From positions 1-64,000 of the IMG/VR virus record IMGVR_UViG_3300045988_039227: DNA of 64,000 bases. One strand, written 5' to 3'. How positions within the stretch are numbered: position 1 is the first letter of the stretch; the number at the start of each line of letters is the position of its first letter. This document shows positions 25,182-64,000 of the stretch, piece by piece. The notes beneath the pieces were generated by a model. It worked only from the letters and a program-made list of their open reading frames with translations, was not told where the DNA came from and ran no database searches. Made by a program: the position numbers and the translations under genes. The stretch is from a virus.

Positions 25182-25285
25182 GGGAAGTTAGTCTAATGGT
25201 AAAACAAGGGCATTGATAGATTGGAATGTGTGCAAGCTTAAAAGAAACACTACCCTGCTTATCGGTTCGAATCCGATACTTTCCA
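25182..25285 (+). tRNA. aberrant tRNA-like gene, 104 nt, with a roughly 35-42 nt insertion in the anticodon region
   Basis: Good acceptor GGGAAGT/ACTTTCC; U8 A9; D arm GTCT-AATGGTA-AAAC; perfect T arm ATCGG-TTCGAAT-CCGAT. I found no 5-bp/7-nt anticodon arm, so isotype and anticodon cannot be assigned. Confidence 0.45.
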
Positions 25286-32500: not shown

Positions 32501-35500
32501 AATAAGCTTCTTCATTGAACTCTAGAACATTCTCTACAAACTTTCTTTAGCAGACTTATTTTTACCAAAGATGTATTCGAGATATTCTGGGTTTATACCA
32601 TATTCTGAATTAGCATCAATAAACTTATACAGATCCTGCGTAGTTTTTTCTCCAGCTTTAATCTAATCTACTATATTCTGGTACTCTTTATCAAACTCCT
32701 CAAAATCTGTAGAATAGTCTGTTTGTTTAGCTAACCAATTATTCCAAGACTGTATCTCAAGAGCCGTCTGTAACTCATCGCCTTCTTTGAGATTACCTTC
32801 TTGATCAAATGGGTTACCTAAGTCTTGTAAGGCATCCTTCCACATCTACAGTTTCTGATAATCGTGAGGATTAAGCTTTTCTGGGTAGGATAAACCAGTC
32901 TACTTATCTGAACATTTCTATAATAAATAGTTAAGTTGGTCTTGTATATACTGCTGCCTAGAAAGTGTTCTTGGAGATAAACCGTGACCAGTTCTAGTCT
33001 TTGGATCGTAAGGTTTACTCAGACGCTCCATAAAGTATATCTTAGAATATCTTCTGTGCGCATGATCACACAGCCATTCCTCATATCTTCTTTGATATGT
33101 TACATAGTTTGGTTCTTGATCTCCGATCCACTACTCTTCTTCTACAGATGATTCTGTGTCGCTTCTTAAAGTCTCTCCAGTTATAGGGTCTTTATAATAG
33201 AAATAGCCATATTTATCTTGCCATTCTTTATTAAGCTTCTCTTTAAAGTTTTCCTAATCTTGTTTAAACTAACCTCTATTAACAGCTGATCTAAACAAGC
33301 CTGTGAACTCTCCCTTCTTAGGACCGTCTGTATACCTCTCCATCAACATTGTCTACCAGTTTCCTGGAGTAAGGTCATCTATGATAGAGTTGGCTTTATC
33401 AAACGCTTTAGCTATCTACTGCATAACAGGAAGAGATTCTTTTCTAGTCTGTTGATCTGCATCCTGTATCATCTAGAATGCTTGGCGAATAATAGGGCTG
33501 TTCTATCTAGAATAGTTAAAGAATAATGTAAGTTTAGACTCATCTCCATACATATCGTTCTTATGAAGCCAATCTTTAGCTACTGTCTTTATTTTATTCT
33601 TCTCTTCCTCTGACTCGTTAATATACTTATCCACATTTTCATCAACTATTTTATCTGCTACAATTTGTGCGGCATCTTTCCATAATTGATTAATCTATCT
33701 TACTGTAGCATTAAGTGTATCAACATCAGCCTAATCTCTAGCATCGAGATCCATCTAGTTATCAGACAATGTTTTGACAAGATCGTTGTAGAAGTCTATA
33801 ATATTAGACTTCATATCGTGTATCTATTCAGCTGTAAGGCTATCGAAATTATTCTTCTAACATTCCTGCAAGAAGCCTAAAATAGTGTCTCTACGAGCCT
33901 ATAAAATAGTATTGTCAATAGGGTCACGCGCAAACACACCAATGGTCTTTAAAGCAGACTGTATAGCTATTCTTGAGGACTCTTTCTTTTCTTGTGACTT
34001 GAGCTCCTATATTGTAGACCACACTTGATCTTCTCTACGCTGTCTATTAGCGCCCTTGTTAAGCTATTTTTTATAATCCTTGTACAATCCCTAGAAAAGC
34101 TCAGTTATTCTATGATGTATCTGATTAATCTTATCTTCAGAAGCTTGTATTGAAGCTAATCTATCTTTGGCTTCCTTATCAGTTATATTGTCTTCTTTCT
34201 ATTCGTTGTGAGACATAACTGTAAACAAATCGCTAACAGCGGCTTCGTATACATTATCTGAACCAATAAATCCTTTATAGCTTGTAAATATCTAAGAATA
34301 TATTTTCTTTATAGTCTGCTTAATCTTTTCGAACAGTGTTTGTTTACGATTATATTGTATAGACTTTAATTTTTCTACAAATTGCGCATTACTTAATTCT
34401 GCTACAAATTCATACACGTCGCTCAAACCGTAGTCCTACGCATCTTCTCCAAGAGCTTTCTTTGTTTTCTCATAGAGATCTGTAAATGACTTTCTTATTC
34501 TAGAATCATTACCAATCGCATGTTCTGTTACAGCATGTAGCATTTCATGGACGATTGTCTATACTTCAGGCGCTTGCGACTTACTTTCGTTTCTGAATCT
34601 AGCATTTTTGTTTATACGGATAACCTTATCGACTCTATCGTAATGTGCAGCCTCTCCTCCAGGAAGATTATCAACTATTTCATATGTAATTCCAGTCTAT
34701 TTATCATTAAAATACCTATTTACGGCAGCCATAACGAGCTTTAAAGCTGTACTAGATATGCCACTTCTATGAGATTTTAAATACTGCTACAATGTTGATA
34801 TGTCGCCCTTAGAAGGTATGTTAGACAACCTAGTTGCTGCTCCCATATTCGATTCTCCTTGAGAAGATGCATATATGTCATCTGGATTAGCAAACTGTCC
34901 ATTGTTGAATACAGATTTTACCTATGAATTATCTATACATTCATATACAGTATGAGGAGAATACGTTTCGGCGGAAGACCCATAATCAACAACGTTGTTT
35001 ATTATTACGCCATCATGATGAAAATCAGGATTGTAAAAGTGTATATTATTTTTCTAGTATTCCTACTTTATTTGATTTATATCTAAATCCAAATACCTTT
35101 TTATAGTAATAATATTATCTTTTATGTAAAAATTAGCATCTCTATTTTTATTTATGCTAACAGTGACTCCATATATATTAAATTTAGAGAAATCTTTATT
35201 CCTATATCTAGTATAAAGATCTGCTCTTGAATCGGATATTTCTGCATCAGAATAATTAGTGGTAAGGTATGTTTTTTCTAAATCCCTAGTTGATAGTGCT
35301 TTCTATCTTTCTTTTGCATAATATATAAGGTCATCTTCTGATATGCCTTTAAATAATGATGAAAGATATCTAGACTCCATAATATTTTCGTATATTGTTT
35401 TAGCCTATTCGGCACTAAAAACATGAACAATACTATAGATTATATCGTCGAAATTAAATTTTGAATCATATTTGTCGTCATCAAATGGAAGAATATCGTC

Positions 35501-36463
35501 AACAAGTCTATCTTTAAATTTATTTAATTTGTCATCAATTTCGTAATATCTTTTTTCATGAATATTGCTCCAACTATGACCATATGCATCAATTATTTTC
35601 GGGTTTTTGATATTTAAATAGTCAACTTTTATATTATCATAAAGATTATTTTCAAATCTGTTTTTATATTTTTCCGGATTAGCGTTATTATGTATATCAC
35701 TAAAATTGTAAAACGACCCTATTATATCTTCATATACAGAAGTAATTAATTTAAAAGGAACATTTGGATCCTAATACTCAACAAATAGTCCATCTAATTT
35801 TAACAAACAATCTTCTGCGTCTTTTATGTTACCATAATTTATCGCTTCTATAATTTTTTTCTTAAGAATATTATTAAACCAATCAAAATTACGTTTATCT
35901 TTAAAATCAGATTCTTCAACATTGTTCAAAATGCTAATAACAGTCCTTTTGGAATCTGTGTACCACTATGAATATTTTTTTAATGTGGCGTCATTAAACG
36001 ACGATAATATATAACTAGTCACATCGTTATAAGTCGATGACATAGTAATGCTATCTGTATGATATATAGCAGTTTTAAAACCTTCTATATTTGTGTCAAA
36101 CTTCTTAAAATTAGGACTATATTTACTGTTTACTGTATGATATGTAACCTACGGCTCTCCATTCTTATCTACAACTTTAGATACATTTTCTTTATCTTCA
36201 GAAGTCCAATCCCCAAACCATTTAAAGAATTCGTCAGAATATACTTTTGCCTTAAGTATAAGGGCTTGTGTTCTGTCGCCGTTTGCAATATGCAATAGCT
36301 CTCCAAATAATATAGAGTCGGCGCCATTTGGCGCCTTATCTATACTATATCCATTATTTTTGCTCCAGAGTAAATACGCAGTATCCTCATCGAACAAATC
36401 TTTTAATTCACCAAATTCTTTGGCTACTTGTTTATTATGTAAATTAGGACATATTTCTTTCAT
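29561..36463 (-). CDS. giant virion-associated protein, 2300 codons, zincin HExxH motif, C-terminal TM and Met/Pro-rich tail (requires TAG as sense)
   Basis: ATG 36463 overlaps the upstream TAA (TAATG). I checked every in-phase triplet by hand: no TAA/TGA occurs until TAA at 29561-29563, and there are about 56 in-frame TAG. Track fragments 36149..36463, 32663..32845, 32102..32419, 31106..31315, 29981..30253 and 29561..29953 are all in this frame. HEMLH lies at 34536-34550. The C-terminus ends MAPMQPMPKMAPMAPMPGF. Confidence 0.75.
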
Positions 36464-39400
36464 TATTTACCTCCTTTGCAATGTTTTCTAATTCTTTCAG
36501 CTTCTTCTATATCTTCCTTAGTAAGATTAATCTATGCCAAAGCCTACTTCTGCTGTTCTTCTTTAATTAGTGTATTAGCGTAATTATCACCTACAACTCC
36601 TTCTATTGATAATCCGTAGCCAGTATAACCTGCTCTAGTATTTTCCTAAACTGTTGATTTTATGTTAAATCTAGAAAGTAATTGTAAACTAAGCCATTCA
36701 GCAGCCTCTCTAGGTAACGCTGCTTTGCCAAGAGCTATAGCGGATGGGAATACAATTGGTTTACTATTGTCTATTCTTGCAAGCATATGGTTAACCCATG
36801 ATTTAAATGCCATTATATCACCTTGATTATCCTAGAAACATCCATCTTTAGCAAGCCATCTACCAGAAGCATCTTGCTGATTAACTTTTACTACAAGACC
36901 AAACGCATTAGGTGTAATTTTGCCATCACTACCAGTTCTGATGCAAGCTTGATTTGTACCAGTAGCACCAGAGCTTACATTTAATACCGGATTCTAATTA
37001 GCAAAACCTTGCATAGACAAACCTTGCGCCTTAGCATAAGCCTAAGCATTATCTGTGAATACGTACTGTACATTTGGGTGTTGTTGAGGCTAGTCTTTAT
37101 AGAATAACTGTTTGCTTATATACACAGTCTATCCAGAAGGACCTTTACCATCAAGATTAATATTAACAGCACTTTGTGTACTTTGTTGTTCTACAGCTTG
37201 TGATATTGTAGGATATTCTGAATTAGCATTATAGTACATCTAATTGAACCACGACATCCAGTTATTGCGCTGCTCGTCAGTAATATTTGGCTTCATCTGA
37301 CTAAGATAAGTCATAAGTTTACTAAGTTGGTTTTCAATAACTTCTTGACTCATAGGAATTCCATTTATATTTAGGTTAATATCACCAGCTTCGTAGATAT
37401 TAAGACCATCTCTATCTGACCAGCCCCTCTTAGGTAATAACGCATATACGGCACGCTTGGATCCATTAATCATAGCCTCTCCAACCTTTTTATACAATGT
37501 GTATGACGTTGGATCGCTATATACTGCTCCATCATTTCGTACTGATATATACAAAGCATCATGTTCGTGAGAGTCCTTGCTAATTATTACAGCAGGAGAA
37601 TACTAAGCATTGAAAGCGTAATAGTAATCTTTGAATGTAGCTCTGCTTACTAAATCGCTATCCATATAGTTGTTCTAAGCTATAAGATCGTGATTAATTT
37701 CTGGGGCTTCAAGTTGTTCCCTAATATAATCAGAGAATGGCACCGTACTTTCGTCGTGTCTAGCTTCAAGCCAACTCATAGGAATGTATTTAGCTATTTT
37801 ATTAAAGCCCTTTGTATCGCCAGATGTAAGCATTGCATACAATATAAGATCATTCGCAAATCTTCTAACATTAGCCTAATGGTCATTAAGAAGCTCCTCC
37901 CAAGACTCTATAAACATATCAGAAGACATCTTACTCTCATCCATACTATTAATAACGCTTATAAACTTAGGTTTGTTAGTAGGTTTTCCGTTTACAAAAA
38001 CATCCTAATCCTAAATATATGGAGCAAGATGTGATAATAGATAGTTATCTTTTAATCTACCTAAACCGTATGCATCACGCTGAATACAAGCCTGTATAGA
38101 GTTCAATCTATCAAATATTGTAGCATTACCGTCAAATAAACCTTTAACATCAATACCTAAAGACTTAGCTAATCTAAGAGCGTATCTAGCTTTAATCTAA
38201 CTACTAGCAGCCTATGATATCTTCTTCATAGTCTTAGCGTTTCTAAGCAAATCGGACTCTCTGTCATTCGTCTTATATTTAAAGTCATCGGATAAATTGA
38301 TAAGCTATTCCATAAACTAAGGTGTACCCTAGAATGATTGTCCAGCCATAACTCTCATAGGCTCTTGAATAGCGTCTCTTGTTTTCTACTCAATCCAAGT
38401 ACCATGTATAAGATTATTGATAGAGTTCGTATCAAACAGCTAATCAGTTTCTGGGTTTGTAAGATTCTCGTAACCTCTAAGATAAGCTTGCATCTCAAGG
38501 AAATTCTTACCTTGCTTACGAGTATCAATCTTAGTATACTGTACCAAACTATTTAATGCGTTAGAATACTTTTCAAGACACTTCCATGCTATGTAGCAAT
38601 TAACCTAGAAGGCTCTAGCTCTTTCTCCCTCTTCGGTCTAAGCATAGACTAAATCTGGGTTCTTAGCAATCTTCTAAAGCATATCCATATTATTGAGTAC
38701 AGAGTTTACTATCTCTGCTCGTCTAGCTGGTTCGCCTTTAGATTTATTTGGTTCAGTAGCGTCTTTAATATACTAATCGTCTATTGTTTTGCCAGTAACG
38801 CTAGGGAATATCTCTGCGAGTCTCTTATCTCTCATTTCGAAAGCTGACCTAAATACCTTAGGATCTCTAGTAAACTGAGACTTTGCATCAATATCTGCTT
38901 TAGCCATCTCTCTAATAATAGGCTAACATAAGAAATAAAGACCTTGTTTACCCTTACCGTTTCTAGCAAGTAAGTTGATCATATTATATGTAAACCCATT
39001 TACATTAAGCTTAGAGATATATGGATCTTTCACAATATCTACGTGGGCATTAATGAATGCTGATAACCAAGATGAAATCTGATTATTATCTTCATCAAGA
39101 ATCTAATCGAAACCGGTAATACCTGTCATCCGTGTAAAGCTAGACTCTTTAAATTTAACACCATACAATGTTGTAAGAATATGGTTTGTTACATTCAACG
39201 CAAATGGACCAATACCAGTCTTACCTGTAATGTAGTCATTTTTACGGGTAACCTGTTCATGCAGTGTACCAAAGTTGTACGCTACGCTCTTTGTGTTACC
39301 CTGTTCTGGAATCTCATCTGCAATGCTTGTTACAAGCTCTGTATCATTATCGATAGATTTATATAAGATATTAAGTGACTTTTTATCCTTAAGTACTGTA

Positions 39401-42400
39401 AGAATACTTTCTATAATGCTATTCTACAATCCTTCTGCGCTTTCTGGATCAAATTCATAACCTCCATTCTCATTAACATTATAACGTGCTAAATAAAGGT
39501 GGTCTATATCAAAATCCGAACCAGTAATCTTGGTAAACTCAGTTGGAAGTATTACTGTAGATTTAACAGCAGGTACAACATCAACAAAACGTAAAGCATG
39601 TATAGATGACTGAGCCTGTGTAGGAATACGATAACCAATCGTATTAGATGTGGCATTTTCTCCGATTATATTATGATCTAAAAGCCATTGTCTAGCTTCG
39701 TTGTAAGATAAGTTCTTTGGAAGTATATCCTAGAAGTAATCAATAGATATTACAGCATCCATAGAGCCTTCTTCGTTTATCATCTACAATCTCTTACCAT
39801 TATAGATCTCCTATCCTTGTATACCGCCTTCGCCATTTTTGCCTTCTATAGCAAATACTGATCTCTGAATAAACGAGCTACCAGGAGTCATAATGTCAAT
39901 AATATCCTTATTAGCCGCAGATATAAGCATAGACTCCATCCAGCTAGCATCAGCAGTAGATGCAATAGGCGCATTCATTGAGCCCGTCTATGGATTATAT
40001 GTAAGAGCGTCTATAAGATTCTTATTAGCATTTCTTGTGCCAAGTTGCTCTATAAGGTACTCGCTAAGCTTCTTTTGGTCTATAATTCCGTTAGAGTAGA
40101 ATCTATCTTTAAATTTGTCTACACCAAGTTTAGAAAGCTTATTAATAGAGCCCATTAACTTGTCTCTAAGCTGTTCTCCAGTCATGTCGCCATACGTTCT
40201 ATCAAGTCGCAAACTAGATAAACAAACCTTAATCATCTGTGTACCGGCTGCTACAACATCACCTTCCTCTGGATCAGTATTAAGCTGTCTACGAAGCGCA
40301 GATAATCTCTGTGTATAAACGTTCAGCGGCTTACTAATAGTCTCTCCATCGAACTCAGAATGGCCTTGTAGACCAACCTTTACAGCAGATGTCATAAGAA
40401 GATTATCAACCTTATTTTCCTTCATCTTATCATACACATTCTTAAGTTTACCTGTGGCTATACAATCAAATATAGGGAACAACGCAAACTTATTATAATA
40501 TGGAACAGATAAGTTAGAAACCTTCTTTCCATTCGTTGTATGATCCCTAAATCCGTATGCTGTATATTTTGTTGTTACAAGATTCACTTTATTATACACA
40601 AGGTCGTATGCATCTTTTTGATCCATCCACGAATATTTATCAGAACTTTCAAGGATATTAATAGCCTTTGCTACGTCGCCGAATAGCGCACCTCTAGAAC
40701 GAAGCATTCTTTTGCACATATCTGCTGTAATGTAAGATGCACCATCGGCTACATTGATTCCACCAGTATAGGCTTTATAGAAGTTGTTAGCTCTAGTTTC
40801 TATCTTCTTAACAGCATCCTCGCCAAAGTCGTCTACAAGCCTAGCTCTTACTGCGCCTATATCTAAATCATCAACACCTTTAAATCCGTAACGGTTTCCA
40901 TAGATTTCCCTAAGTTCACCATCACGCATCTTCTCTTGGAGTTCGCTCATTACATCGGCATTTGAAGCTACTTCATAGTCTGCTATCTCTGCACATCTAT
41001 AAAGTTCTCCATCTGAACCATCATAGTTTGGCAACGATGGGACGTTGTCATCACCTGTAGACACAAGGCCACCGATACGTTTCTGAATATCCTCTACGTT
41101 CTTAAAGAATCCAGGGTTGCCAATATATAATCTCAAGCATTCTTCTGATGAAATCATACCCCTATTTGTAACATCTTGTAATATAGCTGCTATAGCCATA
41201 CTATACGCTGTACGCTGTAAATTTTGTGTATTAGGCGTTATTCCTTTATCGGTGAGATCTTTATACATCTAAGCGTATAAAGTGCGTTCTACAGCATCTA
41301 TTTGGCTCTAATTAAGGTTTATGTTATTAAGGCCAAGGTAACCAAGCTTTTCATCTTTTGACACTATACCAAGACTAACGGCTTTATCTACCTCAAGTTC
41401 GTACTGCTCCTAAAGTGTTAAAGCCATTATCTACTCTTGCTCTTCTCTAGACTTATCAAAGAACTGTTCATTAAGAGTCTTAAGCTATTCGTCAGGAGAC
41501 ATATTGCTTATTTCGTAGCGTTTAATCTAGCCGTCTTCATACACTCTAAGTGTCGTAAGTGATTTAAACTGAATACCACCAGGCTACTTTCCTTTCTTGC
41601 CGATGTGATAATTCATTATCTTGTCTTCATCATTAAGTACGGGTAAGCCCTTAGGGTTATCTACATGTAAACCAAGTTGTTCTCTACAATCAAGTATAGC
41701 TTCACGCTCTGTATAAGCATATTCGATAAACTGATTTAATACAGATTGATTAGGCTGCAAATAGTAGTGAGAGCTATCTAAGAATATCATCTTTGGTGCA
41801 CCGGATACAGTATAAGCACCATTGTCTAACTACCCGAACTACATTCCAGGGATATTTATACCACCAAGAACCATATATGTACCCTTATCGGCAAGGGTTG
41901 GGAATACACAATATCCATTCTGAAGCATTGCGAACTTATTAATATAATCTTCAGCTTCAGCAAGATTGCTATATTTAGAACCATTGTCACCACGATTATC
42001 AGACTTGAAGCCAATAGGAGTATAAATACTAATATTGAAATCTTCTCCGTTCTGCAATTGCTTTGCAACAATAGAACCCATGTTCACGCCATTATTATTC
42101 ATAATGTTGTAACTAGACTACAAAATAGTCCTTACTACCATATTGTTCTTATCATGACTATTAAGGTTCTCTGTAGTATTGCTAATACTATTGTTCTATG
42201 ACTCGTTATACAGCTTAGTACCATCCATACCATTAGACATCTTATCTGTAGTAATCTTCATATAGGCTCCAGCCCAGTTACCTAATTCGCTAACAAAACC
42301 AGTCTTAAATATCTCGTCTACAGCCTTCTGTGTTGTATAACCATTTGTTTGTACGACTTTGCCGACTGCATCAATAAAACTATTAATATTAGATACACCA

Positions 42401-45400
42401 GTAGATGCAATCCACTTTTTAAGGGCTTCTCTACCAACGCCATTATACTTTGTAGATAACATATGATCGAGCATTTCTTTTGTAAAGTTTATACCAAGCA
42501 TATTAAACTCTTTGCATATATCATCTTTAAGTACCTCGATATCACTATTAGATGCTGCGCTTCTAATCCTTCCGTTTATCTTAAATTCACTAGCAGAATC
42601 ATTAAGTATCTACGATTGTAAATCAGAGAAGAACTGAGATATAAATCTAAATGCGTTTCTTGCTACAGTCGTAGGCATATCTACCTAAGTATTCTTTGTG
42701 TTATACTTTGTAGAAAGAAGCAATTGTCCATTCTACCCAACATACCTCTACAATAAGCCAGATTGACCAGAAGATAAGAACGAGTTCCAAAGCTTAGGGT
42801 ACATTCTGGCATCTCTGTCGAAGTTTGCATCAGATATTTTGACTTCAACACCTCCGTTCTTATTACGTATAGACCTACCAATAATAAAGTTGTGTTCATG
42901 GCCCTTTATAGCTGTAAAGATTTGTATCATAAACGCTTCTTTATCGAAGTCTATCTTTTCAAGCTAATTATCGTCGTTGAATGTATAGATAGAATTGTAT
43001 AGATCGCTATACTTCTAATAGATTGCCATATACATAGGGTTCTGCGTAGATAACTCCTGCAGTCTATTTAATAAGTCTAAAGGAGTTTTAACATCATGTA
43101 ACTTGCTAACAACTACATTAAATACCTGCTTAATAGGCATAAATGTAGGAACGCCATATATGTTCTTAGATGTATCAAGAGCAAGTTTACCGTTATCATC
43201 AAACTTATAGTAAGGTATTGTAGCAAAGAACATCTTCACTGGCTTACTTACAGAATCAAGCTTATTGAACTCAAATGCGGACTTATCGTATCTTTCGATA
43301 GACTTTCCATAATCATTCTCTTCCTGGTCACTTGTCTCAGAATCGTCATCATGCTGATATTTGCCGTCATAGGCATCCATTATTTCGGTAAGATACTTCT
43401 ATACTTCTTTTGATATAGCTGAGAAGTTAGGGAATACAACATCACCTTTATCATTTAATTCTGCGTAAAACACTTCTCTAAATGCTTGCTGTGTAGGAGT
43501 AACTGAATCAACAGACATATACTATCCATTCAGAACGGGCTTAACAGAACCTGGCTCGCCAATAAGGTTGTTTATAACCTTCATTGGTATATATTTAATA
43601 GGAAGTTCTGAAGAGCTGTGTACTGCATCATATATATCAGTAGCATCTTTAGCAGACTTTACTATAATATATCCAAGAGCTCTAGCCATATGTTCCTTCT
43701 CAGCGGCAGAGCCTATATGATCGAATTTGCGTCCATTTATTTCATAATGCAAGTCTTCGCCAAACAGCTTTTTAAATCTATCTTGCTGTTCTTTGCTTAC
43801 CTATTTATCTGCATATTTTCCAGACTTAATATCGTTGAACAAAGTAAGAACCGTTTTAGCATTGTTTCTGTAATGCCACAAGATACTTAATCTGTTAGCT
43901 ACTTTCTTTATATTCCTCTTAATCCAGCCTTGTTTCTTTATAGCATTAGCGTCTTTTGTGCCGAGCATATAATCGACGAATAAATCAGCCAATCCCTCAG
44001 CTACATCTCTTTCTGTAGCAGCTTCTGGATGAGCTTTTCTGTATGCAGAATACATCTATTCTCTTACAGATGGCTCTACAAGTAATTCTAATGCCCTATG
44101 GAATCCTTCATGGAAGCCAATAGTATAAGGAACTGAATTAGACATCTAGATAACAGCATCTGTACACCTAGCAAGTACTGCGCTATTCTTTTTATAAGCT
44201 ACATCTGATAACCTTTCGCTTTCTACCCACTATGGAGTAATACCTGTTGTCTTTCTGACCCATTCATCAACGGCACTAGCAAATGATGGCTTTTGTTTCT
44301 AGCCTTCAAACTCTGATAAATCTTGTTCATAGAACAAAGACATAAATGTGTCTTCGGCCTACTTTTGCTGCTATTGAATATCTTGTTTAGCAACTGTTTT
44401 AGATGCTTGCTGAGCGCTTCCATTTGGATGATTTTGTACAAGCTCTACATTATCTACGTATACTGTAGGAGGATCAAGTTTAGCTGCATATGACATTAAA
44501 TAACCATTGCGCAGCATATAACCAAGACCGGTAGTACCTTTGCCATCATGAGTAAAGTCTTCTCTTGTAAACGTAAGACCATTTGGAAGTTCTACTTTAT
44601 CAAGGTTAGGATTTGATGCATATTGCGCATTAAGCTTAGCTAATACACTATTATGTGATGACTATATATATTGCTGCATATTCTACTGAACAAATGCAGC
44701 ATCTTTTGTCATATACATATTACACAGAGCATTGTAGATATTAGCGTAGTCTACACTAGGATTTTGCGTAGGGTAAATAACATTACCTATTATAACTCTC
44801 TTATTAGCCGGATCTAATGTAACAAGACCTTCTATTGAGTTATATTTCTCATTTAATACTTTATTGTCAGCCTTAATATAAAGAACCTGCTTAAGTAAAT
44901 CGTCTATAGAATATCCTTGATACTCATTTAAACCTTGATAACATTTATACCATATAAGGTCTGCAATCTTATTAGCCTAACCACCTTGACCAGCAGTAAA
45001 TTTAGGCTGTATTAACGGCGTACCAATACATCTATTATCTACAGCTTTCTCAGTCTGACCAGTATCATAGAAGTATACAATATTACCAGATTGTGTTATA
45101 GCTGTACGTTTTATATATTCTAGATCAAATCCACTAATTAAAGTTGATAATTCTGGGCCACCATATACCATCTTCGTTACGTCACCAGTGTTTACGTTTT
45201 GTGTAGCCTTAAGGAAACCTATTCTGTTACCAGCGTCGCATGTAATATTGTACAAATCATGCTAATTAAGCGTTCCTGCGAACAAGAATTTACTTACAGG
45301 CTATAATTCACTACCGTTCTTAATTGAACCCTTAGAACGGCTTAATTTCATGCTTATATGGTATCCTGGATGTGTTTTCATAAAGTCGAGCATATACTTA

Positions 45401-48400
45401 ACTTTCTATACAAACACAGCATCTGCAGCTTTCTTTCTAGCAAAATATACCGGATCAACACCCCTTGGACCAGCGTCATTACCCTGGTCGAATGTCATAA
45501 AGATTGTTCTGCCTTTAGAATCTGTAAGCTTAAGCTATACTTCATTATTTCTCCACACAAGCTCAGCATTACCAGATTTTCCAGAAGCATCTGGGTAAAT
45601 CAAATGCGGATCAAGCGCTATAGAGAAGTAATGCGGGTCAAGTTTAGCCCTAAATGCAGGGAAATGTTTAGTAGTATCACTATACAGCTCTCTCCATTGA
45701 TCGTCAATCATATTGATACTCTACGCGCTGTTTGTATCAAGTATATCGTCAACATTTGGATCTACAGGGAATCTCTGGTTATATTCTCTAATGAAGTCTT
45801 CTGCATCATAAATAGTATCAGTAAGCGCATTATCAAGAGCTGTATTTGTTTTCTATACATTCTTTGTATTATCAGTCAAGAACTTAAGCTAATTATTTAT
45901 AACCGTACTCCAGAATCTTTGCAAACTCTTGTTGCCAACAAGGCTATTCATAAACTCGCCATCAAATGTAGCAAGGAATGACTTAATCTTGTTAAAATAA
46001 GTAAAGCTAGGATTACCAATATTAGATGAAAATTGAGTCTGCCACATTTGTAAGGCCTTATTTGCAGCGTCTCCGTACATCATCCTATTGTCTACTAGCT
46101 TATTAATAGCTGCTGCTATAAGCTTCTGCTCTGGAAGGGTATCGCCAACTTCAAACTAATCGCTACCGTAGAATTGGTCAAGAGCTGTCTAGGCATCATA
46201 TATTGAGTAAATAAGCTCATTAACTTGAGCTCGTTCGTCTGCTGTTGTAATATTAAGGTTTGTAATAGAACTTAACAGCGTATCAAGTTTCTTGCAGATT
46301 TCATGAATAGTATCAAGACCCGCCTAATATTGTTCATCTACAATAACGTGATCAAACGCATCTTCTGGGTAGAATCCAGGTACAGTATTCTCGTGCTATT
46401 TAGGCTACATGAGCTAATTTAAGCGCATCTGAGCGTCTTCTTTTAAGCTCTGGATAGATTCTATAGCTGAGTAAAGATCTCTCATCTGAAGTAATAATTC
46501 GTCCTTATTTGAGCCTTCTTTAAATATATCGTAAGATGGTACAGTTTTATGTTCGCCACCAGCTTCAGCAATACTATCGTATATACTTTGCAAATCAGAC
46601 ATAAGATCGTTTACTTTATTCTGCAAAGGTCTGACAACTTCGTTAGAAATATCTTCATTAGATTTATTGTAATATGGTGTTACAGGCTTGTTGAAATCAA
46701 GCATTTCTACTTTAAATACAGGTTCTGCTACAATTCCACTCGCTGTTCTATCATAGTAGAATGGCATTACGTATGTGCCTTCAATATTAGAACCAAATGT
46801 ATCGTAAAGTACCTAATTTAATCTTTGAAGCTATCTCTATTCCTACTGGATCATTGTTTCTTTAGCTCGACTATTGGACTTCTAATTACCAAGCATTCTG
46901 GTTTTTATGTCTGGTTTAAATGAAGATCTAACATCTATAACAAGAAGCTATCCATCATTATCAACAAGTACAATATCAGCCTATGATTGTATAGCTCTGC
47001 CTTTGTCATCATAGCCATAAATAGGAATGTCTGTATCAAGTACTCTATACTGACCGCCGTTGAGCATTCTGTCTCTAACAGACTTAACATACTGCTTAGC
47101 ATCTTCTAGTCCATTCGGATTATCTAACAGCGTGTCGGCAAAACTATCGTCATTTCCTAACATTATAGCCTATGCTAGTTCCCTAATAGTTTCTCCATCC
47201 CTTATAGACTGAGAATTAAAATAAGCTGTATCTATTGATGCTAAATAATGAGCAAATCCCTATAATAATTCCCCTTTATTTGGCTGAGAAAATATTGTGT
47301 CAATTATATCAGAATAATCTTGATCTCCGAATCTATCTGTATTATCTGCAAGATATCCAAGTATCTACTATTTGTCAGAGATGTTTATATTTTCCTCAAT
47401 TTCTGGATAATGAGACTGATATTCAAGTCTGTCTATCTCGTCTATATTTTCAAATACATGTAGATTATTATTATCGTCGTACGCTATTGTTGTATGGAAA
47501 CAATGTACAATAGCTCTGTTCTATTGACGCTTTAAAGCCTTTCTGTATCCATCGAATGATGTATCTTGAGAGGCATGTGTGGCAACTTGTGCTCCATAAG
47601 ATTGTACATCCATAGGAGTATTCATATTCTCCTTTTCTTTACGTGTTGATGTAAGGTAATGGCGAATATACATTGCTTTTGCTAAAGCTAATACTGAAGG
47701 TCCGCCGTCCTAACCAGTCTCTTCTTGAAGAATAGTTTTTATATCATTGTAGAGCTATTCAAACTTATAGAAACCAACCTTAGCGTTCTCCATAAGACCA
47801 TCGAATGACTACATTGCAAGTTCATCAAATCCAAGTAAAAATGATACTCTTGCTTTATTGCGCCTAGCTTTGCGCTTCTTTCTATAATGCTCTCTAGCCT
47901 TATCTCTACGACGTTTATATTCTTCTGCGTGTTTCTAAAGCTCCTCTGTAGTAGCTATATGCTTTTGCTAAGTTTCTGTTGGGTCTACAGCTTGCTTAGC
48001 TTGAGTATTAATGTCTTTTATATCTTCCTATGCAGCTTTAAGTATATCATTCTAGTAATCCTCTGTAAGCTTTGTTACAGCGTCTCCAGAATATATATCG
48101 GATAACATCCAGTCTATATTTTCATTCTGTTTGTTTGCATCGATAATCTTTGTGATACGCTCGTTAAGCTTACTCTTTGACCCGTCTTTAGCCGCAGCTC
48201 TAGTATGTTCTTCTGGCTTATATTTATCACCGAGCTTCTGCTTTAACTCAGCCTGCTTTCTCTGATACCTAAGCTCATCTGGATTATACTCAAGATTACC
48301 ATTATCATCACGTGTAACGCCTTCTGTGTGAATTGATAATGTAGAGTTAAGTAAGGATTCGTTAGCTGTATACATAGCTCTAGCTTGTTCGAGCTCCTGG

Positions 48401-51400
48401 ATCTCGTTATCATTAAATCCAACAGACTCGCTAAAATTGTTCAAGAATTGTAATGTCTATTCGTCTGTAGACTTCTCGTCGAAATTCTTATAAGCTTTAG
48501 CTAAACTTTGCTTTGCGCGAGCAATTTGTTTATCTATATTAGCAGACAACAACTTAGCGTCAGGTCTAACGGTCTTTAATCCAAGCTTATCGTGAGCAAA
48601 CTTAAATATGTCATCAATAGAATTCATCTTTGCTTTAAGTGTAAGCAATGCTTTCATTCTATTGTGAGCTTCAGAATTTCTCTGGAAGTTATTTATATGT
48701 CTATCGTGCTCTTCTTTCTATGAGCGCTCAACAAACTTTTCGCCATATTCGTTTGCTTCATCTTTGATAGATTCTTTGTATTCTACTACAGATTTTTCTA
48801 CTTCCTCTTGAGGCAAAGCTGCTGTATCAAGAGACTTCTTGTACTCATCCACCTTTCTGTTAACATAAGACTCGATTGCCTTAGTCTTTGCTGTAGCTGC
48901 ATTTATAGCAGTTAGCATAGGATCTCTTGACTATTCCTATCTATTTACAGCCTGTTCTACCTGATTTTGATAACCTTGCTGTCCGTAAATCTACTGAAGT
49001 CTAGCCTCGGCTTCCTACTAAGCTTTTCTGTTAGCAGTTAACTATTGCTCGATGTTAGCCCTATCAGCTATAGCTACATTGTATTGTTCTGTACCTTTAC
49101 TGATACCTTTAAGACGATATTGCTGTTCAGTCTACTTATTGTTTACGAGAGCAGAAATACGCTCCACATTAGACTGTAAATCATTCCAATACTGTTCACC
49201 AAAACGTGGTCTCTCTCGCTTCAAATCAGCCTCTCTGAGCTACTATATTTCTGTAGTCAGCTAATTATACCTTCCCTTAGAGATCTGGTCTGAAATAACA
49301 GCATTACTAGCTCTATTCATCTTTCCTTGTTCTCTATCAAGAAGCGCACTGTGCATTATAGCGTCTTTTACTTGTACGGTGTTCTTAATGTCATTAACGG
49401 CATGATAGATGTTCATGGCTACCATAGGATGCATACCACCCATAGCAAAACCACCTCGCCAGTTTGACAACATCTCCATATCGTTATAAAGTTCAGATTC
49501 GCCAAGACCAAACATACCTTTATAGAAGTCTGATACCTCTTTGCTATGAGCCATATCCTGGAATGCAAGACTGAGCAAATCAGCTGATCCGTATCCATAT
49601 GTCTTAGCAAACTCTTCAGCAGCATTAGCATTCAACTGCTGTACAATTTCTTCATTTCCTTCAGACGCTCTATCTATAATACCTTTTCTAACCGTATTGA
49701 TACCGTATTTGTTAAGCATTTTGAGAGCAGTAACTGTATTAGGATTCTTTACGGCTGCTTTCAGTAGTTTTCTCTTCAGCGTTTTAGCTCCAACCATAGT
49801 TGCTAATGCTTCAGCCTTCTTCGCTATAGCCTCACTAGCCATAACTCCTGCGTCTTTTAGAGCTTGCGGCATGACTTCTTTTGCAAGCCCCTTTACTCCC
49901 CTAGCAACTTCTCCTGCGGCAGCACCAACTCCAGCGCCAACATAATGTCCAAGAACACCACCACCAAGTACATCCATTGTTGTTGAGCCAATCTTTGCAC
50001 CAGTTTTGCCAGCTGCACTTGTAAGAGAGTTAACATACTGTCCAGCCTGTGCAAATTTACTTTCAACAGCTCCGTTTAATCCCGCGAGAGCATAGTCTGT
50101 ACCAATAACCAATCTTCCAGCTTTACTAGTGGCAAGCTTTGCCCCAAGTTTTGTTGTAGGAAGTTTATAGATGGCTTGTCTATAAAGACTTGATAGACTA
50201 TTGCCTGGCTATACATATGATATAACGTTTTGAACAACTTCTGTACCCATCGTTCTAGCGTTATCTACCATAAATTGCTATTCAAGACCTTTTGTTGTAC
50301 CGAGTTTAGCTTTAGATAAACGTGGATCATTACTCTTTGTAACGCCCATTAGGTAATCACTAAGAACTTTTTCCTTACCTTGCTGTGTATTAAGATTATA
50401 TCTATCCTCGGCATCTTTCTTAGACATACCATTCTACATTGCAAATTTTACAGACTGCTTTTGCAAATCTTTATACGATGCAGAAATACCTTGTGCTTTA
50501 CCGGAAGCTTCCTACGCTTCGTATTTATTAAGATTCTATTGATAGTTCTAGGTCCAACGTTGAGCAATTTCAGCGTAGTTCTCATCTTCTGCACCTTGCA
50601 GATTAAATGGAAGTGCAGCTGCATTAGCAGCGTTGTACAAAGCAAAACCAGCTTCTGGATGTCCGGCTGCTCCCAAAGCAAAAGAACCGACAGTACCAGC
50701 AGTTGTTATAAGATTACCAATATTACCTGTGTCTGAAGACCAAGAAGAACCCATCTGTTGAGGCAAATTCCACAACCAATAATCAGGTGTTAATAGATCA
50801 TCATTAGCATGTATATTTGCAAGATTCTCAGCATGTTTACTAACGTTCCAGAACTTCTTCCACTTAGACGCTCTACGCATCTAATCGTCAAGAGTTTCTT
50901 TGTAATCCTTAAGATCTTGCTAACGCTTAGCTTTAAATTGATTTGCTTCTATTTCTTTTTGATCCAAACTCATTCCTTGATGAGCCTTTTCAAATCTATT
51001 GGATAGCTACTTATTATAGTTATCAAGCCAATCCCTAGCCATCTACTCTTTGGATCTACCTGTGCCGTCAAACATATCATTTGTGACAGCAAATGCCTTA
51101 GTCATAGCAGCCTGAAATCCTTCCCACATAGATGTATGATCTTTCATCCATGTAGCCTTGTATGCATCGGCGAGTTCATTTAAATCTTTGTCTTGCAGCT
51201 AATCGTATGTTGACAAGATTTCTTTACCAAGTAAATACGTATCTTTCCACGCATCTCCTTTAACCTAAGCTTTAGGATTAGCTTTAAGGTAATTCCATTG
51301 GTCTTCCTTTGATTTAAGATCTCTTTTAAGTCGCTCCCTTTTGGACCATGCATCAGCTTTTGCCTAGTCTGTCTAAGCTAAAGCGATTTTACCCTTTGTG

Positions 51401-51948
51401 CTTTCAATTCCAAGATCGCTAGACTGATTTGAAAACAAACCAATTCTCTAGCCAATCTTCCATAACGTGAATTGAAAACTATCTTTTCCAAGTTCGTTTA
51501 TACCGCCAATATCAGAGCCAACAGAATTTTTGTAGATATCAGTCTTTTTAAAGTCTTCAAACAGCTTATCTTCCTCAAGCTATGTTTGCTTCTCTTTCTC
51601 TGCGTCAGAAAGTATACCTTCCGAGTCATCTTGGGCATCAATCTTTTGTCTGTTTGATCTTTCTTGTTGCTTGTATAAGCTGTCAATATGTTTATTCCAG
51701 TCATATTCAGCTATAGCATTTTTCTATCTCTGAATAGATTTTTGACTAGGCTTATACCAATCCCCGTGCGGCATTATATCAGACTCTAATCTAGAACCAG
51801 ATTGTCTTGATATGTAACTTGGTACATTAGCCTAAGTCCTTTTATTAGGAACGGATTGGCGTTGATTTGGTAGCGTTATACCAAATCTTTTAGCCTATCC
51901 TCTAAAATAGTCCTCTGCTGGGGACTTAAGTAAATTGTAATTTGCCAT
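36463..51948 (-). CDS. giant 5161-codon ORF containing a crAss-type two-barrel virion RNA polymerase module (requires TAG as sense)
   Basis: ATG 51948 follows an in-frame TAA (51952-51954). The hand phase scan found no TAA/TGA until TAA at 36463-36465, and about 124 in-frame TAG. IGYRIPTQAQSSIHALRF...ILPTEFTKITGSDFDIDHLYLA parallels the beta-prime segment NRAPTLHRLGIQAF...NADFDGDQMAVH, with DFDID at 39502-39516. HEGFH lies at 44098-44112. A TAG-free 426-codon block lies at 39988-41268. Confidence 0.75.
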
Positions 51949-58700: not shown

Positions 58701-60441
58701 TCATGAACTATATTCCTAGATTTCTGATAACTAGTTCATAACGTTTACCATTAACAATAGTATTTGATGACATCAACTAAAAGCCTTCTTCTGTAACATT
58801 TGGAGTTCTTATATCAGCGATCCATTTAACTGGGGATGCTTGGCAATATTTATCATACAAAACAATTCCATAACGATAAATCTCGTTTCGTCTAAGTGAC
58901 TTTATTAACCATGTGTTGTTATTTATTCCTGGATCAAATTCTGCTTTCTCTATTTCAGATGGTTTAAAATCTTTATCTATGTAAAAGACGTTGTTCTACT
59001 TTACGTTTTCTTTTTGAGAATAATTGTACAATGTTCCTATTTTTCTTGTATTATTCTCTTTTACGCAGGAGTCTTCAACCTAAGGGCTTATAACAAATCT
59101 CCATTCTATGTTTTTACCAGATCCACCTACCCATCTATATTTTGAATCGAATACAAAATTAGCAGAATATAATGAAGCTTCTTTATTTATGTTATTATAA
59201 GTATCATCATAACAATCGTGATCAAATGGAGGAACGGCAACGGAGTCACTTTCTATGTCGTATTTGTGCGCATCTATTGTAAATGTGTCATTACCATTAA
59301 CATCTGTTACGATACTTTTGTTTTCGTAATTGAACCTAAATGCTCTCGCGTCCCATTTATCGAAATCCTTAATAGTAGTCTGTATTGTCTTTGTGTTTGC
59401 AGCAAACAGGAAACCATCTTTAGACGCTAATGAGTTAGGTATTATTCTAACACCTTGTAATGAATTTAACTCTTCGACACTGATCTATTCTATTGGATCA
59501 TTGCCAACGTCGTTTATTATTAATTCCGAAGAATTATATTCATCAAAATTTATTTTAGCATCGTATATCACAGATACTATTGGCATCTATCCGTTTTGTG
59601 TATACTGTACCCTAAATACTTTGATGTAATCAAGGTGCCAATAATCGCTAGGAATTTGTATAGATATCTTTACTCCACAATTTGATTGCGCGCCCTATTT
59701 GCCACCGCACTTTACATATTTGCTATCGAAGTCATAATTACCAATTGGTATTTGCTGACATTGTATAGATGCTCCCGTATGTATTCCGTACCTATTGTAT
59801 AACTGGTAACAATAGCTTACAACACCAAACTCTATCTTTCCTGGCACATACTCTTCAAATACTGGCGGTTTACAAACCGCTTCTGGATAAGATAAACATT
59901 TGTTAAGATCACTGTATATTAAAGGATCATCTCTATTTATATTAAAAACCATTATCGGATGCTTAGAGTCAGCCAAGTATAGCTTGATATTATTTTCGCT
60001 CTCATAATTAAGCTAAATATCAAACACATCTGGATACTTCTCTCCTTTATCTAAAGGTAATAATTCTGCATCTACAACAAGTTTACTCTTCTATATATCG
60101 TTGAAGTCCTGGTCGTGCACTGTTCCACCTATCGCATTTTTAAAACTATAGACCTTAAGTCTGTTTTCATTTTCATCAACGCAAACAACTACTCCATAAT
60201 CTCTTATTGAACCAGTAGCAACAACTTTGTTACCCTCACCAGCAAGTAATCCAGCTAGCTTTACACCCTAGACTGGCATTAATGATCCATGTCTATTATC
60301 TCTACCTTCTCCACCTCTGTATGATGATATTTTTATATTTCTAGCATCAATATACTAGTTTGTAGCAACAACAGAGAGATCATCATCACTATTTAATCCT
60401 CCTGCGAAACTATTAATTTGTGGTTCAGTATTAGTATCCAT
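55729..60441 (-). CDS. large virion structural protein, 1570 codons (tail hub/nozzle-type role inferred from position only; TAG as sense)
   Basis: ATG 60441 follows an in-frame TAA at 60460-60462. The phase-checked reading reaches TAA at 55729-55731, with about 38 in-frame TAG. It joins track fragments 59695..59976, 58471..58704, 57832..58434 and 56395..56742. Confidence 0.7.
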
Positions 60442-61249
60442 AGCAATAATCGTTAAAGTTTAACTATTTCTTTCCGGTGTTATTGAAGAAGTTCTCATCA
60501 TCATCCCATTCTGGTATAAGCTTAGTCCACTCATTCTTAATAGTGAGCATCTCACTTTCGTTTGGCATCATTGCCTCAGCGTAAGCCTGGTTTCTATAGA
60601 AATTCCACTGCTGCTATATATAGAAGTATGTGTTCTAATTGTATCTAGCTTTTCCTCCAAGTGATCCTCTAAGGAATTTTGGGAAGCTTAACTTCATCAT
60701 TACGTACCAGTATATAGCTTCCTAATATGAAGCTAAGTCTGGAATAAGTGGGTAACCCCTTTCATCTGTAGCTATTGCCTTGTATGACAATTTAACAAAG
60801 CCTTTGTCTTTATTAAAGACTATCCAACCTGGTTTAATCCAGTATGTAGGAACATCTATTTTCTTGTCTCTAATAGCATCCATCAGCGCAGTGCTACCAT
60901 TGATGCCAAGAAGCTATGATCTATGCGTAATCAACGGTACGCCAGCAGGCTACTCTGGATGATGGTGATGCATAGGTTTTGTATCAGCCTTAGACTTAAA
61001 TGAGCTCTCATCTTTTAGTGCCTATACCCAATTTGTTCCATTGTTTGAATAGGCTACAGTTGTCAATGATTCTAAGTCTTCTGGTATTGGAACTTGATGT
61101 TCGTGTATTTCAAATATTGGAACGCAATCTTCACCAGACTCCTTCTATACATACTATACAGGGGCACCAATTTTTTCAACAGCTTCAAAGATCCATTCTC
61201 GTATATCTGTAATACGCATGTTCTTTTCTTGCATGTTTGAGTCAGCCAT
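60431..61249 (-). CDS. virion module protein, 272 codons (TAG as sense)
   Basis: ATG 61249 (MADSNMQEKNMRITDIREW...) lies 20 nt after the upstream TGA. The phase-checked reading reaches TAA at 60431-60433. Confidence 0.65.
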
Positions 61250-61268
61250 AATTTTAGCTATAACTGAC

Positions 61269-61739
61269 TCACATTTTGTATACTTGTATATCATCTATAT
61301 TTATATAATCTTGTTTATTAAATATAAGTTGAGCAAGGTGCCTTTTGTTTTCCCTAACCATACATAGCTAGTATTTATATCTATCAGAAAACATCCTGGG
61401 TATTTTTGACCAATATAATCTATATTTATATCCATTAGAGTGCTCGTTTAAATGATAAACCCTTTTGCCTACTTCTTTAGTTGATTTGTAATCTGTAGAC
61501 AATGACTAACTAGAGTAGCTCTTTGGTTTATATTTTACTATGCATACAGTGCCTAGCCCATAAGGCATTTTAAAGGGCTGTGAGCGCTCTAAAATTTCTT
61601 CCTTGACAACTTTATTAAATTCGTCTATAATGCGCTTATATCGCGCGTAATTAAGCTCTACATCGTTCTTTTTAATGTAGTCTCTATATATATCAGCTAT
61701 TGTGTAGCTTTTCTTATTCTTCCTTATCTTGAGGACCAT
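61269..61739 (-). CDS. IHF/HU-like DNA-bending protein, 156 codons (2 in-frame TAG)
   Basis: The beta-arm-like motif FKMPYGLGTVCIVKYKPK resembles the HU/IHF sequence LPGFGTFxVxxR. After TAG read-through at 61506 the ORF ends at TGA 61269-61271. Confidence 0.55.
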
Positions 61740-62406
61740 TTGGTTTAACGCTTGCTAATGTTGAATTATTGCTATCGTCACTAGGTCTTTTTAACATAAA
61801 TGCCAATTCGTTGGTCATGATAGCTCTTTTTATGTCAGGTATCATCCACCCAGGTATTATTACATCATCTTCACTATCAGCCGTTTGCGTTGGATCAAAT
61901 ATTCCTGTAACGTATATATATTTAAAATTTTCCACACCATCACCATCAACATATATATACTAGTCGTCAAACCAACATATTGGCTCGTTGTATGTATATC
62001 TCCTAAAGTTATGATAATGTTTTCTAGACTTATTCATGATCTAGATAACACAACCGCTAATATCTGCAACATTAACTATGTCGTCGCTACTATCTTCCAT
62101 TGTGTACAATTTCTTTTTTGTTCTCTTCCTTGTACTACAATGACAGCAACAAGAGTCCTCTGATCCAGGAGTTGGATCGTCTATAAGCTCAAGTGGTCCA
62201 ATGGTTGATAGCTAACTATCATCTGGATCTTCATCATCTCCAGTTTCAGAATCTTTATCATTCTACTTCTTGGACAAATAGGCCTTATACTACATTATCC
62301 AAGATAAGATCTAATCCCTAGACATATCCTCGCTCTCGCTTATGTTATTATTTCGTACAATAAGAAGTATGTCATCTATCAATGTACGAGCTGAGAATGT
62401 TTTCAT
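61714..62406 (-). CDS. acidic virion module protein with a CCCHC cluster, 230 codons (TAG as sense)
   Basis: ATG 62406 overlaps the upstream TGA (ATGA). The phase-checked reading reaches TAA at 61714-61716. The track entry 61714..61935 starts at an internal GTG. Confidence 0.6.
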
Positions 62407-63068
62407 ATTGCTTCTATTATTCTTATACTATCTTCTTTAAGTATATCATTTGTATTATGTATCTTATATTTATACACATCTTTCTTTTTCCAGTCAAATG
62501 TTATTAATCTCTTAAAGAAGTTCTTTTTGTTCTTATATTCTCTATGCTTATAAATGTAGAGGTACTAAGTATTCTATACATCTAGCTTAATATTAACACT
62601 ATCTTTACCGATTGTATAGTATACTTTAGTTAGGTTGTTATACTGTAAACTATCTCTGTAAACAGAGTCTTTAAGTATAGTTATAATATTACCCCCTACC
62701 CCCTTACTTTTATTAACGTTTATAATCTACTTCTAAGTTGCTGCTACCTAAATTTCTTTACTCTTTAGCTTCTCTACTTTGCGTACAGAGTCCAACTACT
62801 ATACAAGCTTATCATTATAATCTTTAAGCTTTTTCATGTCTAGCCTTAAAACACCAGAAGCCTACTAGGCACCATTTAAGGCATCCTAATAGGCTTCGAT
62901 GTTATTATTAGCCATTTTAAGCTCCTCTGAGAGCCTATTAGCTTTGTTGTGGTAGAATATACCAGACGCTAAACAAAAGGCTATTAGAAGCCCAGCAATG
63001 GCGTTAAGCAGCGTTTTGTAGTTGTTCTTTATCTTGTTTAATATCTACTACATCAGCATTGCTTTCAT
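62403..63068 (-). CDS. spanin-like protein (N-terminal TM plus coiled coil), 221 codons, 12 in-frame TAG
   Basis: Translation is MKAMLMQQILNKIKNNYKTLLNAIAGLLIAFCLASGIFYHNKANRLSEELKMANNNIEAYQDALNGAQQ.... The phase-checked reading reaches TGA at 62403-62405. It overlaps the holin-like gene by 65 nt. Confidence 0.5.
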
Positions 63069-63309
63069 TATTGTTCAAATATTCTTTTAAATATGTTTTT
63101 ATCTCACCAAACTTACCTTGTATATAAATAGATACTCCATAGATACTAGCTGAATAAACTAATGTTTGGGCTACAAACCCTAGTACACCTGTGGAGATTT
63201 CACCCTACTATAAATACTGTACCCAGGTGAGAACCTAACCGCTCAAGAACGCGAGACATGCGGTTGAATACTAAATTTTCTCGCGCCATGTTCCTGTTAC
63301 TTTGCTCAT
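63004..63309 (-). CDS. holin-like small membrane protein, 101 codons, 4 in-frame TAG
   Basis: ATG 63309 overlaps the lysin-like gene's TGA (ATGA). Hydrophobic segments are YSTACLAFLSGQVLTWV and GVLGFVAQTLVYSASIYGVSIYI. TAA stop at 63004-63006. Confidence 0.5.
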
Positions 63310-63731
63310 TTTATCTCAATAGTTACCTTTCCTTTAGCACAAGCATCCTTTATAATTGGATAGAACTTGTTTATGGTAGCTCTTGAGTTAAGGACCATTC
63401 CAACTTTCTTATTTTCCCCAAGCAGCAAACAACCGGCCGTATCTTCATGTGTTGAGCCAGCGTGTATACGAATACCTTCAAATGATGGTACATTCATCAG
63501 TTGAGGAGTATACTTCTTAAATCTAGGCGAATAGGTCCACTTAATCTCATAAGTTCCGTAAGGTATTGCTGTTTTGGCATATACCTTTTTCTCTCCGTTA
63601 TCAAATTTACCGTTCTTATTAAGATCTCTAACTGTATCTTCAAGTGTGTCGCAAAAATAATTACCATCAATATATAATCGTCCGATGGTATACGTAGAGC
63701 GTAAGGCTATTCTTTTAAGTGTTAATTTCAT
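63306..63731 (-). CDS. DUF5675-like / YkuD-fold-like putative cell-wall hydrolase (endolysin candidate), 141 aa, no in-frame TAG
   Basis: This is an intact ORF in the track. The motif GIRIHAGSTHEDTAGCLLLG resembles the H...GC catalytic signature of L,D-peptidase folds. It lies immediately upstream of the holin- and spanin-like genes. Confidence 0.5.
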   Translation of the reverse strand: MKLTLKRIALRSTYTIGRLYIDGNYFCDTLEDTVRDLNKNGKFDNGEKKVYAKTAIPYGTYEIKWTYSPRFKKYTPQLMNVPSFEGIRIHAGSTHEDTAGCLLLGENKKVGMVLNSRATINKFYPIIKDACAKGKVTIEIK

Positions 63732-64000
63732 TAATAATTAAGCGTATAGGGGCATACGAGTACACCGTTGTCAATATGTATTAAACGCACATGTATATTA
63801 TATTGCAGGTTAAAGCTATCTATAGACGTAAGCTTAGGGCCACCCTAAGTTGTTTTCATCACTTTAAATAAATTTTTGTAGTCTCCTGAAGATAATTTTC
63901 CTCCCATCAAACCACATGGATACATGTCTAAGACATTTCCTATAGAACTATAATCGTACCAATCGGAAATACTATAATTACCTGATGTATCTAATAAAAC
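63731..64000 (-). CDS. C-terminal part of a late gene that enters from beyond the window (1 in-frame TAG)
   Basis: The frame is open from 64000. It ends ...VCPYTLNY* with TAA at 63731-63733 overlapping the next ATG (TAATG). Confidence 0.5.

Follow-up and report, generated by a model that had tools for sequence, protein, structure and literature searches.

Can the decoding of a single codon decide when a phage lyses its host? The question is raised by three overlapping genes on the minus strand of a 64,000-nucleotide viral sequence (IMG/VR record IMGVR_UViG_3300045988_039227, positions 1 to 64,000; hereafter the window), in which a putative cell wall enzyme lacks in-frame TAG codons and its two predicted membrane partners contain several. 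The original prediction read this contrast as regulation: the wall hydrolase would be made independently of a switch to a code in which TAG is sense, and the synthesis of holin and spanin, hence the timing of lysis, would be gated by a suppressor. If true, the locus would show, at the level of single genes, lysis being timed by the genetic code itself.

The cassette and its phage

The window (G+C = 36.9%) is part of a ~105 kb crAss-like gut phage that reads TAG as glutamine. Its cassette region shares ~90% nucleotide identity and the same gene order with the phages cr7_1 and cr124_1 (NC_055895 and NC_055899; Crassvirales, Suoliviridae, Burzaovirus), and many contigs close to 105 kb in length carry the exact 141-aa protein encoded by the first gene. 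The plus-strand replication block (1 to 29500) has virtually no TAG. The minus strand from 29561 to 63737 forms a continuous gene block once TAG is read as sense, including open reading frames of 2300 and 5161 aa for which such reading is required. In-frame TAG is confined to these late genes and is aligned with Gln codons of relatives, as expected for code 15; the TAG alignment columns mostly switch with CAA/CAG, and metaproteomics has shown that crAss-like phages decode TAG as Gln (PMC9523058). No suppressor tRNA(CUA) was found in the window; the tRNA(CTA) of cr7_1 (9123..9194) maps ~2.6 kb past the window's left end. Of the 660 Gln codons in the other genes of this minus-strand block, 283 are TAG and 377 CAA/CAG, and the resulting TAG share of 42.9% was used as the background rate.

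The first gene of the cassette, g1 (63306..63731, minus strand), encodes a 141-aa DUF5675 protein, a candidate endolysin, with no TAG and one Gln codon (CAA). It is followed by g2 (63004..63309, minus strand), a holin candidate of 101 codons with 4 in-frame TAG, the ATG of which overlaps the TGA of g1 as ATGA. The third gene, g3 (62403..63068, minus strand), overlaps g2 by 65 nt; it has 221 codons, 12 of them in-frame TAG, and encodes an Rz-like (i-spanin-like) type-II membrane protein. Since third codon positions were the most frequent sites of substitution relative to the relatives in g1, g2 and g3 alike, all three are real coding genes. The original prediction had described this arrangement in the same terms, and its account of the three genes, including the TAG counts, the ATGA overlap, the two hydrophobic segments of g2 and the N-terminal transmembrane (TM) helix and coiled coil of g3, was borne out. 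The cr7_1 and cr124_1 annotations name the orthologue of g1 a 'putative transpeptidase' (gp23) and that of g3 gp24. The small, putatively two-TM gene g2 is unannotated in the cr7_1 RefSeq record.

The cassette is flanked by a fibre gene upstream and by the CrAss_Ring_2, CrAss_Ring_1 and muzzle protein genes downstream. Only the 3' end of the upstream gene (63731..64000, minus strand) lies in the window before the gene runs off its edge; at least one in-frame TAG lies in the visible part, and the gene ends in a TAA that shares bases with the g1 ATG (TAATG). We considered whether g1 might head the operon and rejected this, as the upstream same-strand reading frame reaches and overlaps the g1 start codon. 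In a contig carrying an identical g1 (L084), the upstream gene encodes a 662-aa tail fibre with Phage_fiber_rpt/Phage_head_fibr domains and 10 TAG, whereas the corresponding protein of cr7_1 has 2497 aa; all eight genes upstream of g1 in L084 contain TAG. A sigma-70 promoter scan was uninformative, with 15 matches where 11 were expected and a model that does not cover Bacteroidota promoters. Downstream, the start of a gene with 6 TAG (61714..62406, minus strand) overlaps the g3 stop. It encodes a 230-aa crAss tail Ring_2/virion structural protein (phrog_9863, virion structural protein, E=1e-15), and PF25702 (CrAss_Ring_2) was found at the identical arrangement in L084. The CrAss_Ring_1 gene (60431..61294, minus strand; 287 aa, PF24228) lies ~1.1 kb downstream of g3, with TAG at 9 of its 14 Gln codons.

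Predicted functions of the three proteins

The g1 protein is a clear member of DUF5675 (Pfam PF18925, E=1.2e-33; 115.8 bits, gathering score 26.7, residues 4-128), as originally proposed. An initial search for homologues gave only proteins at least 90% identical, and a second, profile-seeded search added diversity. Across 29 diverse and 40 closer homologues, residues H90, G92, G100 and C101 are invariant, from which we infer that the histidine and the cysteine form a catalytic pair. An invariant His...Gly-Cys motif is also found in Tlde1a and the YkuD enzymes (MEROPS C82), although the 11 residues between His and Cys in g1 make a closer spacing than canonical YkuD enzymes have. Tlde1a itself is a toxin that acts as an L,D-carboxypeptidase/transpeptidase, its L,D-transpeptidase fold being altered (PMC9638812), and a 2026 preprint has classed DUF5675 as 'C82-like'.

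In contrast to Tlde1a and YkuD enzymes themselves, the DUF5675 proteins match the corresponding profiles below the Pfam thresholds throughout. Tlde1_dom (PF10908) was matched by 12 of the 29 homologues, at best with 19.9 bits (cut-off 30.1), and YkuD (PF03734) by 5 of the 29, at best with E = 0.0034; among the YkuD matches with listed scores the highest reached 17.4 bits (cut-off 23.4). These matches cover the predicted catalytic region. Support for the label 'YkuD-like' that had been given to g1 comes only from these weak profile matches, which occur in its homologues; the window protein itself gave no YkuD or Tlde1 match in Pfam at E<=1. A second difference from the Tlde1a/YkuD enzymes is that no solved homologue was recovered by Foldseek. 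An AlphaFold2 model of g1 built with an alignment reached a pLDDT of 92 (40 for single-sequence AlphaFold); searching the PDB with the former gave no solved structure of any kind at E<=0.001 and no peptidoglycan-related fold (the best match, at E=0.14, was irrelevant), and the Foldseek matches of the model were only other viral DUF5675 proteins. Likewise, neither phmmer nor the 29-sequence profile produced a significant match for g1 among PDB sequences. The top profile matches, Enterococcus faecium L,D-transpeptidase chains at E ~1.4, were discounted, the alignment lying on their non-catalytic N-terminal domain. Taken together, g1 is a candidate Cys/His peptidase that may be related to the L,D-transpeptidase/Tlde1 superfamily.

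The g2 protein has two moderately hydrophobic segments, at approximately residues 12-33 and 38-63, and a C-terminal tail in which 12 residues are charged, for a net charge of -2. The KD values of the segments, 1.08 and 1.38, are below the usual threshold of 1.6, and the Wimley-White octanol value is -5.3 for each; their hydropathy is comparable to that of the canonical holins lambda S and S21. The gene is conserved in 17 recoded relatives. Its TAG columns switch with CAA/CAG 42 times out of 47. In its small size, two hydrophobic segments, charged tail and position adjoining the enzyme gene, g2 resembles class II holins. Unlike these, g2 has no homology to any named holin family (PHROG, Pfam and NCBIfam); its sole family match is phrog_8278, of unknown function (E=0.0056), with one sub-threshold Pfam match to the unrelated MciZ (E=0.18) and none in NCBIfam.

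The g3 protein combines a TM helix at residues 20-38 (KD 2.25), a coiled-coil-like region at approximately residues 38-115 and a beta-rich C-terminal domain; the heptad score of residues 38-70 was equalled by only 1 of 500 shuffles. A type-II N-terminal TM helix followed by a periplasmic coiled coil is the architecture of an i-spanin, and g3 also matched the Rz-like spanin families of PHROG (phrog_739, E=7e-6; phrog_214, E=3e-4) and TIGR03495 LysB (E=0.0065). It differs from the Rz/Rz1 spanins in its extra C-terminal domain of ~105 aa and in having no embedded or nearby o-spanin gene: no lipobox reading frame for an o-spanin was found on the coding strand between 59000 and 64000, nor downstream of the cassette in four related contigs (L002, L003, L006 and L013; ~3.5 kb each).

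A lysis module or a virion-associated one

Synteny gives the strongest support for reading these genes as a lysis cassette. The cassette genes remain linked in other crAss-like lineages, including those with the standard code, in which DUF5675 is flanked by g3 homologues and by small TM proteins. Unrelated phages with the standard code carry, directly after DUF5675, either a u-spanin-like reading frame (lipobox and C-terminal TM) or one with an N-terminal TM and a coiled coil. The original assignment to lysis has fair support: synteny, the Rz-like matches of g3, the hydrophobic segments of g2, and the His/Cys pair of g1 with the sub-threshold Tlde1/YkuD matches of its homologues speak for it. 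The lack of a solved peptidoglycan-enzyme fold in the Foldseek search and of an o-spanin speak against, as do the net acidic tail of g2 and its lack of a match to a named holin family.

The same genes could instead serve entry. DUF5675 would then be a virion-associated wall-remodelling enzyme, and g2 and g3 would be tail-assembly or envelope-contact proteins. Such a role would suit the location of the cassette, which has a tail-fibre gene on one side and the Ring_2, Ring_1 and muzzle genes on the other, and also the occurrence of DUF5675 as a domain within viral proteins of 868-1251 aa; it would agree, too, with the finding of no o-spanin within 5 kb and with the missing match of g2 to a named holin family. 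However, DUF5675 is small and stand-alone in the unrelated standard-code phages, and its succession there by u-spanin-like or Rz-like reading frames is a hallmark of lysis cassettes. The match of g3 to several Rz-like spanin families and the small multi-TM proteins that accompany the module also argue against a role in entry, which we regard as unlikely.

If the module does act in lysis, g1 would be a cytoplasmic DUF5675 Cys/His peptidase without a signal sequence, most likely a Tlde1-like L,D-carboxy/endopeptidase that cuts the peptide stems or cross-links of peptidoglycan. The small two-segment hydrophobic protein g2 would be the likely holin, and g3, a type-II membrane coiled-coil protein, would act at the envelope like the Rz i-spanin. 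All three would be expressed late from one operon and read through only once the phage tRNA(CUA) decodes TAG as Gln.

TAG codons, glutamine content and lysis timing

The reason that g1 lacks TAG is the single Gln of its protein. With one Gln codon, a count of zero has a probability of 0.57 at the background rate; a cruder null calculated per codon gives P = 0.025. Likewise g2, with TAG at 4 of its 10 Gln codons, is average (P = 0.69). The exception is g3, in which TAG occupies 12 of 13 Gln codons (P = 3e-4); it is the only gene of the cassette that is enriched. Conditioned on composition, the TAG contrast between g1 and its two partners is thus no more than chance.

Nor is the TAG-free state of g1 conserved. 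Among 14 close TAG-recoded relatives (g1 70-92% identical), the g1 orthologue has no TAG in 5, one in 6 and two in 3. One in-frame TAG is present in cr7_1 (L007), against none in the window, and another relative (L008) has TAG exactly where g1 of the window has the CAA of its single Gln, in line with TAG being read as Gln. More distant recoded relatives have 2-5 TAG in the g1 orthologue. Pooled over the window and the 14 close relatives, TAG/(TAG+CAR) for g1 is 12/27 = 0.44, which is indistinguishable from the background of 0.43; the corresponding share for g3 is 0.75. Low Gln content could be seen as an adaptation of g1 to recoding, an explanation we rejected: standard-code DUF5675 homologues, with 0-5 Gln in 130-160 residues, are just as Gln-poor. 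The TAG-free g1 is a by-product of a Gln-poor family composition and has no separate regulatory design.

These counts largely refute the proposal that an ungated enzyme is set by design against gated partners, which we now consider very improbable. In its favour, TAG rises from none in g1 to 4 in g2 and 12 in g3 of this strain, five other close relatives are also TAG-free in g1, and in L084 every gene but g1 contains TAG over a stretch of the late operon longer than 20 kb. The logic is also biologically sound, because a cytoplasmic endolysin is harmless without its holin. Against this, zero TAG is expected more than half of the time for a single Gln codon, g1 has 1-2 TAG in 9 of the 14 close relatives and 2-5 in others, TAG use per Gln in g1 is that of the background, and DUF5675 is poor in Gln in phages with the standard code as well. 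Moreover, g1 is not at the start of its operon: TAATG couples it to an upstream gene that contains 10 TAG in the identical-enzyme strain. Expression of g1 before the switch would thus presumably be lowered too, since termination in the upstream gene would bring polarity and the loss of translational coupling.

A graded version of the idea would make the number of TAG codons a timer. The yield of full-length protein would scale as (read-through efficiency)^n, so that the products of one operon appear in sequence, n being roughly 0-2 in the enzyme gene, 2-4 in the holin-like gene and 6-12 in the spanin-like gene, and the outer-membrane step coming last. As suppressor tRNA accumulated, full-length enzyme would appear first, then the holin and finally the outer-membrane-acting protein, and the extreme TAG preference of g3 would be a selected lock on the final, irreversible step of lysis. 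The order g1 < g2 < g3 in TAG count is seen in the window and in 14/14 close relatives, and the TAG preference of g3 is far above background (12/13 here; 75% pooled versus 43%), in agreement with the bias that Borges et al. reported for the spanin (p=9e-6). However, these 15 genomes are closely related and therefore not independent, one contig (L047) breaks the order with 5 TAG in g1 against 4 in g2, and Gln content and length suffice to explain the counts of g1 and g2. We consider a timer of this kind quite unlikely, if somewhat less so than gating by design.

The codon-choice signal that is real, a preference for TAG over CAA/CAG in g3 and in no other gene of the cassette, has already been published. 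Borges et al. (preprint) applied gene-family TAG statistics to ~105 kb crAss-like phages and reported that TAG is preferred by the spanin, by an enzyme termed 'lysozyme type amidase' and, 1.1 kb downstream of the spanin, by a tail gene. The window belongs to the same phage group, with the same genome size and code 15, and has standard-code replication genes, recoded structural and lysis genes, a TAG-preferring spanin family and a TAG-rich tail gene at about that distance. The TAG bias of g3, together with the TAG-rich Ring_1 gene at this distance, reproduces their result, and CrAss_Ring_1 is probably, judged by position, the 'tail tube' family that they flagged. The recoded enzyme differs, as far as the two can be compared by name: it is a 'lysozyme type amidase' in their data, whereas the enzyme here is a DUF5675 protein that shows no TAG preference. 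The original prediction had matched the locus to the published hypothesis that recoding controls lytic genes and had set apart its visibility gene by gene; that view is not new, because these statistics had been obtained on the same phage group.

The best explanation of the locus as a whole, and one that we consider probable, is a conserved Crassvirales lysis-type module in a TAG-recoded late operon, with the TAG-free g1 as a by-product of composition. The original interpretation is accordingly supported in part, in that a lysis module is likely and differential gating is not supported. As such, the cassette is an ordinary example of a pattern already known, a late TAG-recoded block of structural and lysis genes with a TAG-rich spanin-like gene. 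It also means that zero TAG in a gene should be read as regulation only after conditioning on Gln content and checking orthologues. With no lipoprotein partner, g3 may be a single-component disruptor of the outer membrane. The adjacency of spanin-like and TM genes in many phages suggests that DUF5675 may be the endolysin of many Crassvirales and other Bacteroidota phages.

An unannotated cassette gene and the cassette border

The conserved 101-codon gene for a two-TM protein, our holin candidate g2, lies at 63004..63309 of the window and has its counterpart at 75156..75392 of the related phage cr7_1 (NC_055895; 12770..13006 of locus L001). The RefSeq record of cr7_1 contains no annotation for g2, leaving a gap between gp24 and gp23, the orthologues of the Rz-like gene g3 and the DUF5675 gene g1, respectively. 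Similarity to cr7_1 ends exactly where g1 starts (window 63740 onwards), and the gene upstream of DUF5675 varies among close relatives (L002-L014, upstream of position 4001). Its versions include one for a tail fibre of 662 aa and one for a 2497-aa 'spore coat-like' protein. Together, this loss of similarity and the variable upstream gene place the cassette, on sequence comparison, next to a hypervariable locus and a recombination breakpoint. The hypervariable locus is probably a host-range locus.

Genes following DUF5675 in other phages

In some recoded relatives the interval between DUF5675 and g2 carries insertions. These are an HNH-endonuclease-like ORF in L037 and L039 (about 4450..5200 in both) and an extra small, TAG-free ORF with two hydrophobic segments in L047 (4450..4680). 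Phage contigs that use the standard code or recode TGA have, after DUF5675 and joined to it by a start/stop overlap, ORFs of 130-169 aa (L063, 4417..4809; L065, 4387..4779; L067, 4414..4857; L033, 4456..4965). These ORFs combine a lipoprotein signal at the N-terminus with a TM helix at the C-terminus, matching the architecture of a unimolecular spanin.

Other reading frames and RNA genes of the window

Two giant ORFs are found on the minus strand, one of 5161 codons with 124 in-frame TAG (36463..51948) and one of 2300 codons with 56 (29561..36463); they probably encode the crAss cargo and virion RNA polymerase-type proteins. On the plus strand, an apparent ORF of 161 codons with 5 TAG (6120..6605) overlaps the tRNA-Met gene (6481..6555); rather than a recoded early gene, it is most likely spurious.

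A 104-nt tRNA-like gene (25182..25285, plus strand) matched the full length of the Rfam tRNA model with 40.9 bits. Its anticodon arm holds about 33 additional nt, and this insert ends in CUA immediately 5' of the 3' strand of the stem. ARAGORN made no call for this gene, and the equivalent position of cr7_1 is without any annotation. The phage also encodes a permuted tmRNA on the plus strand (8880..9115; ARAGORN span 8850..9206). It scores 64.2 bits with Rfam RF04321, whose cut-off is 47, and ARAGORN predicted DNVNNIVDYTNVA* as its tag peptide. A tmRNA is likewise annotated in cr7_1. The combination of stop-codon reassignment with a ribosome-rescue RNA of the phage's own may be of interest.
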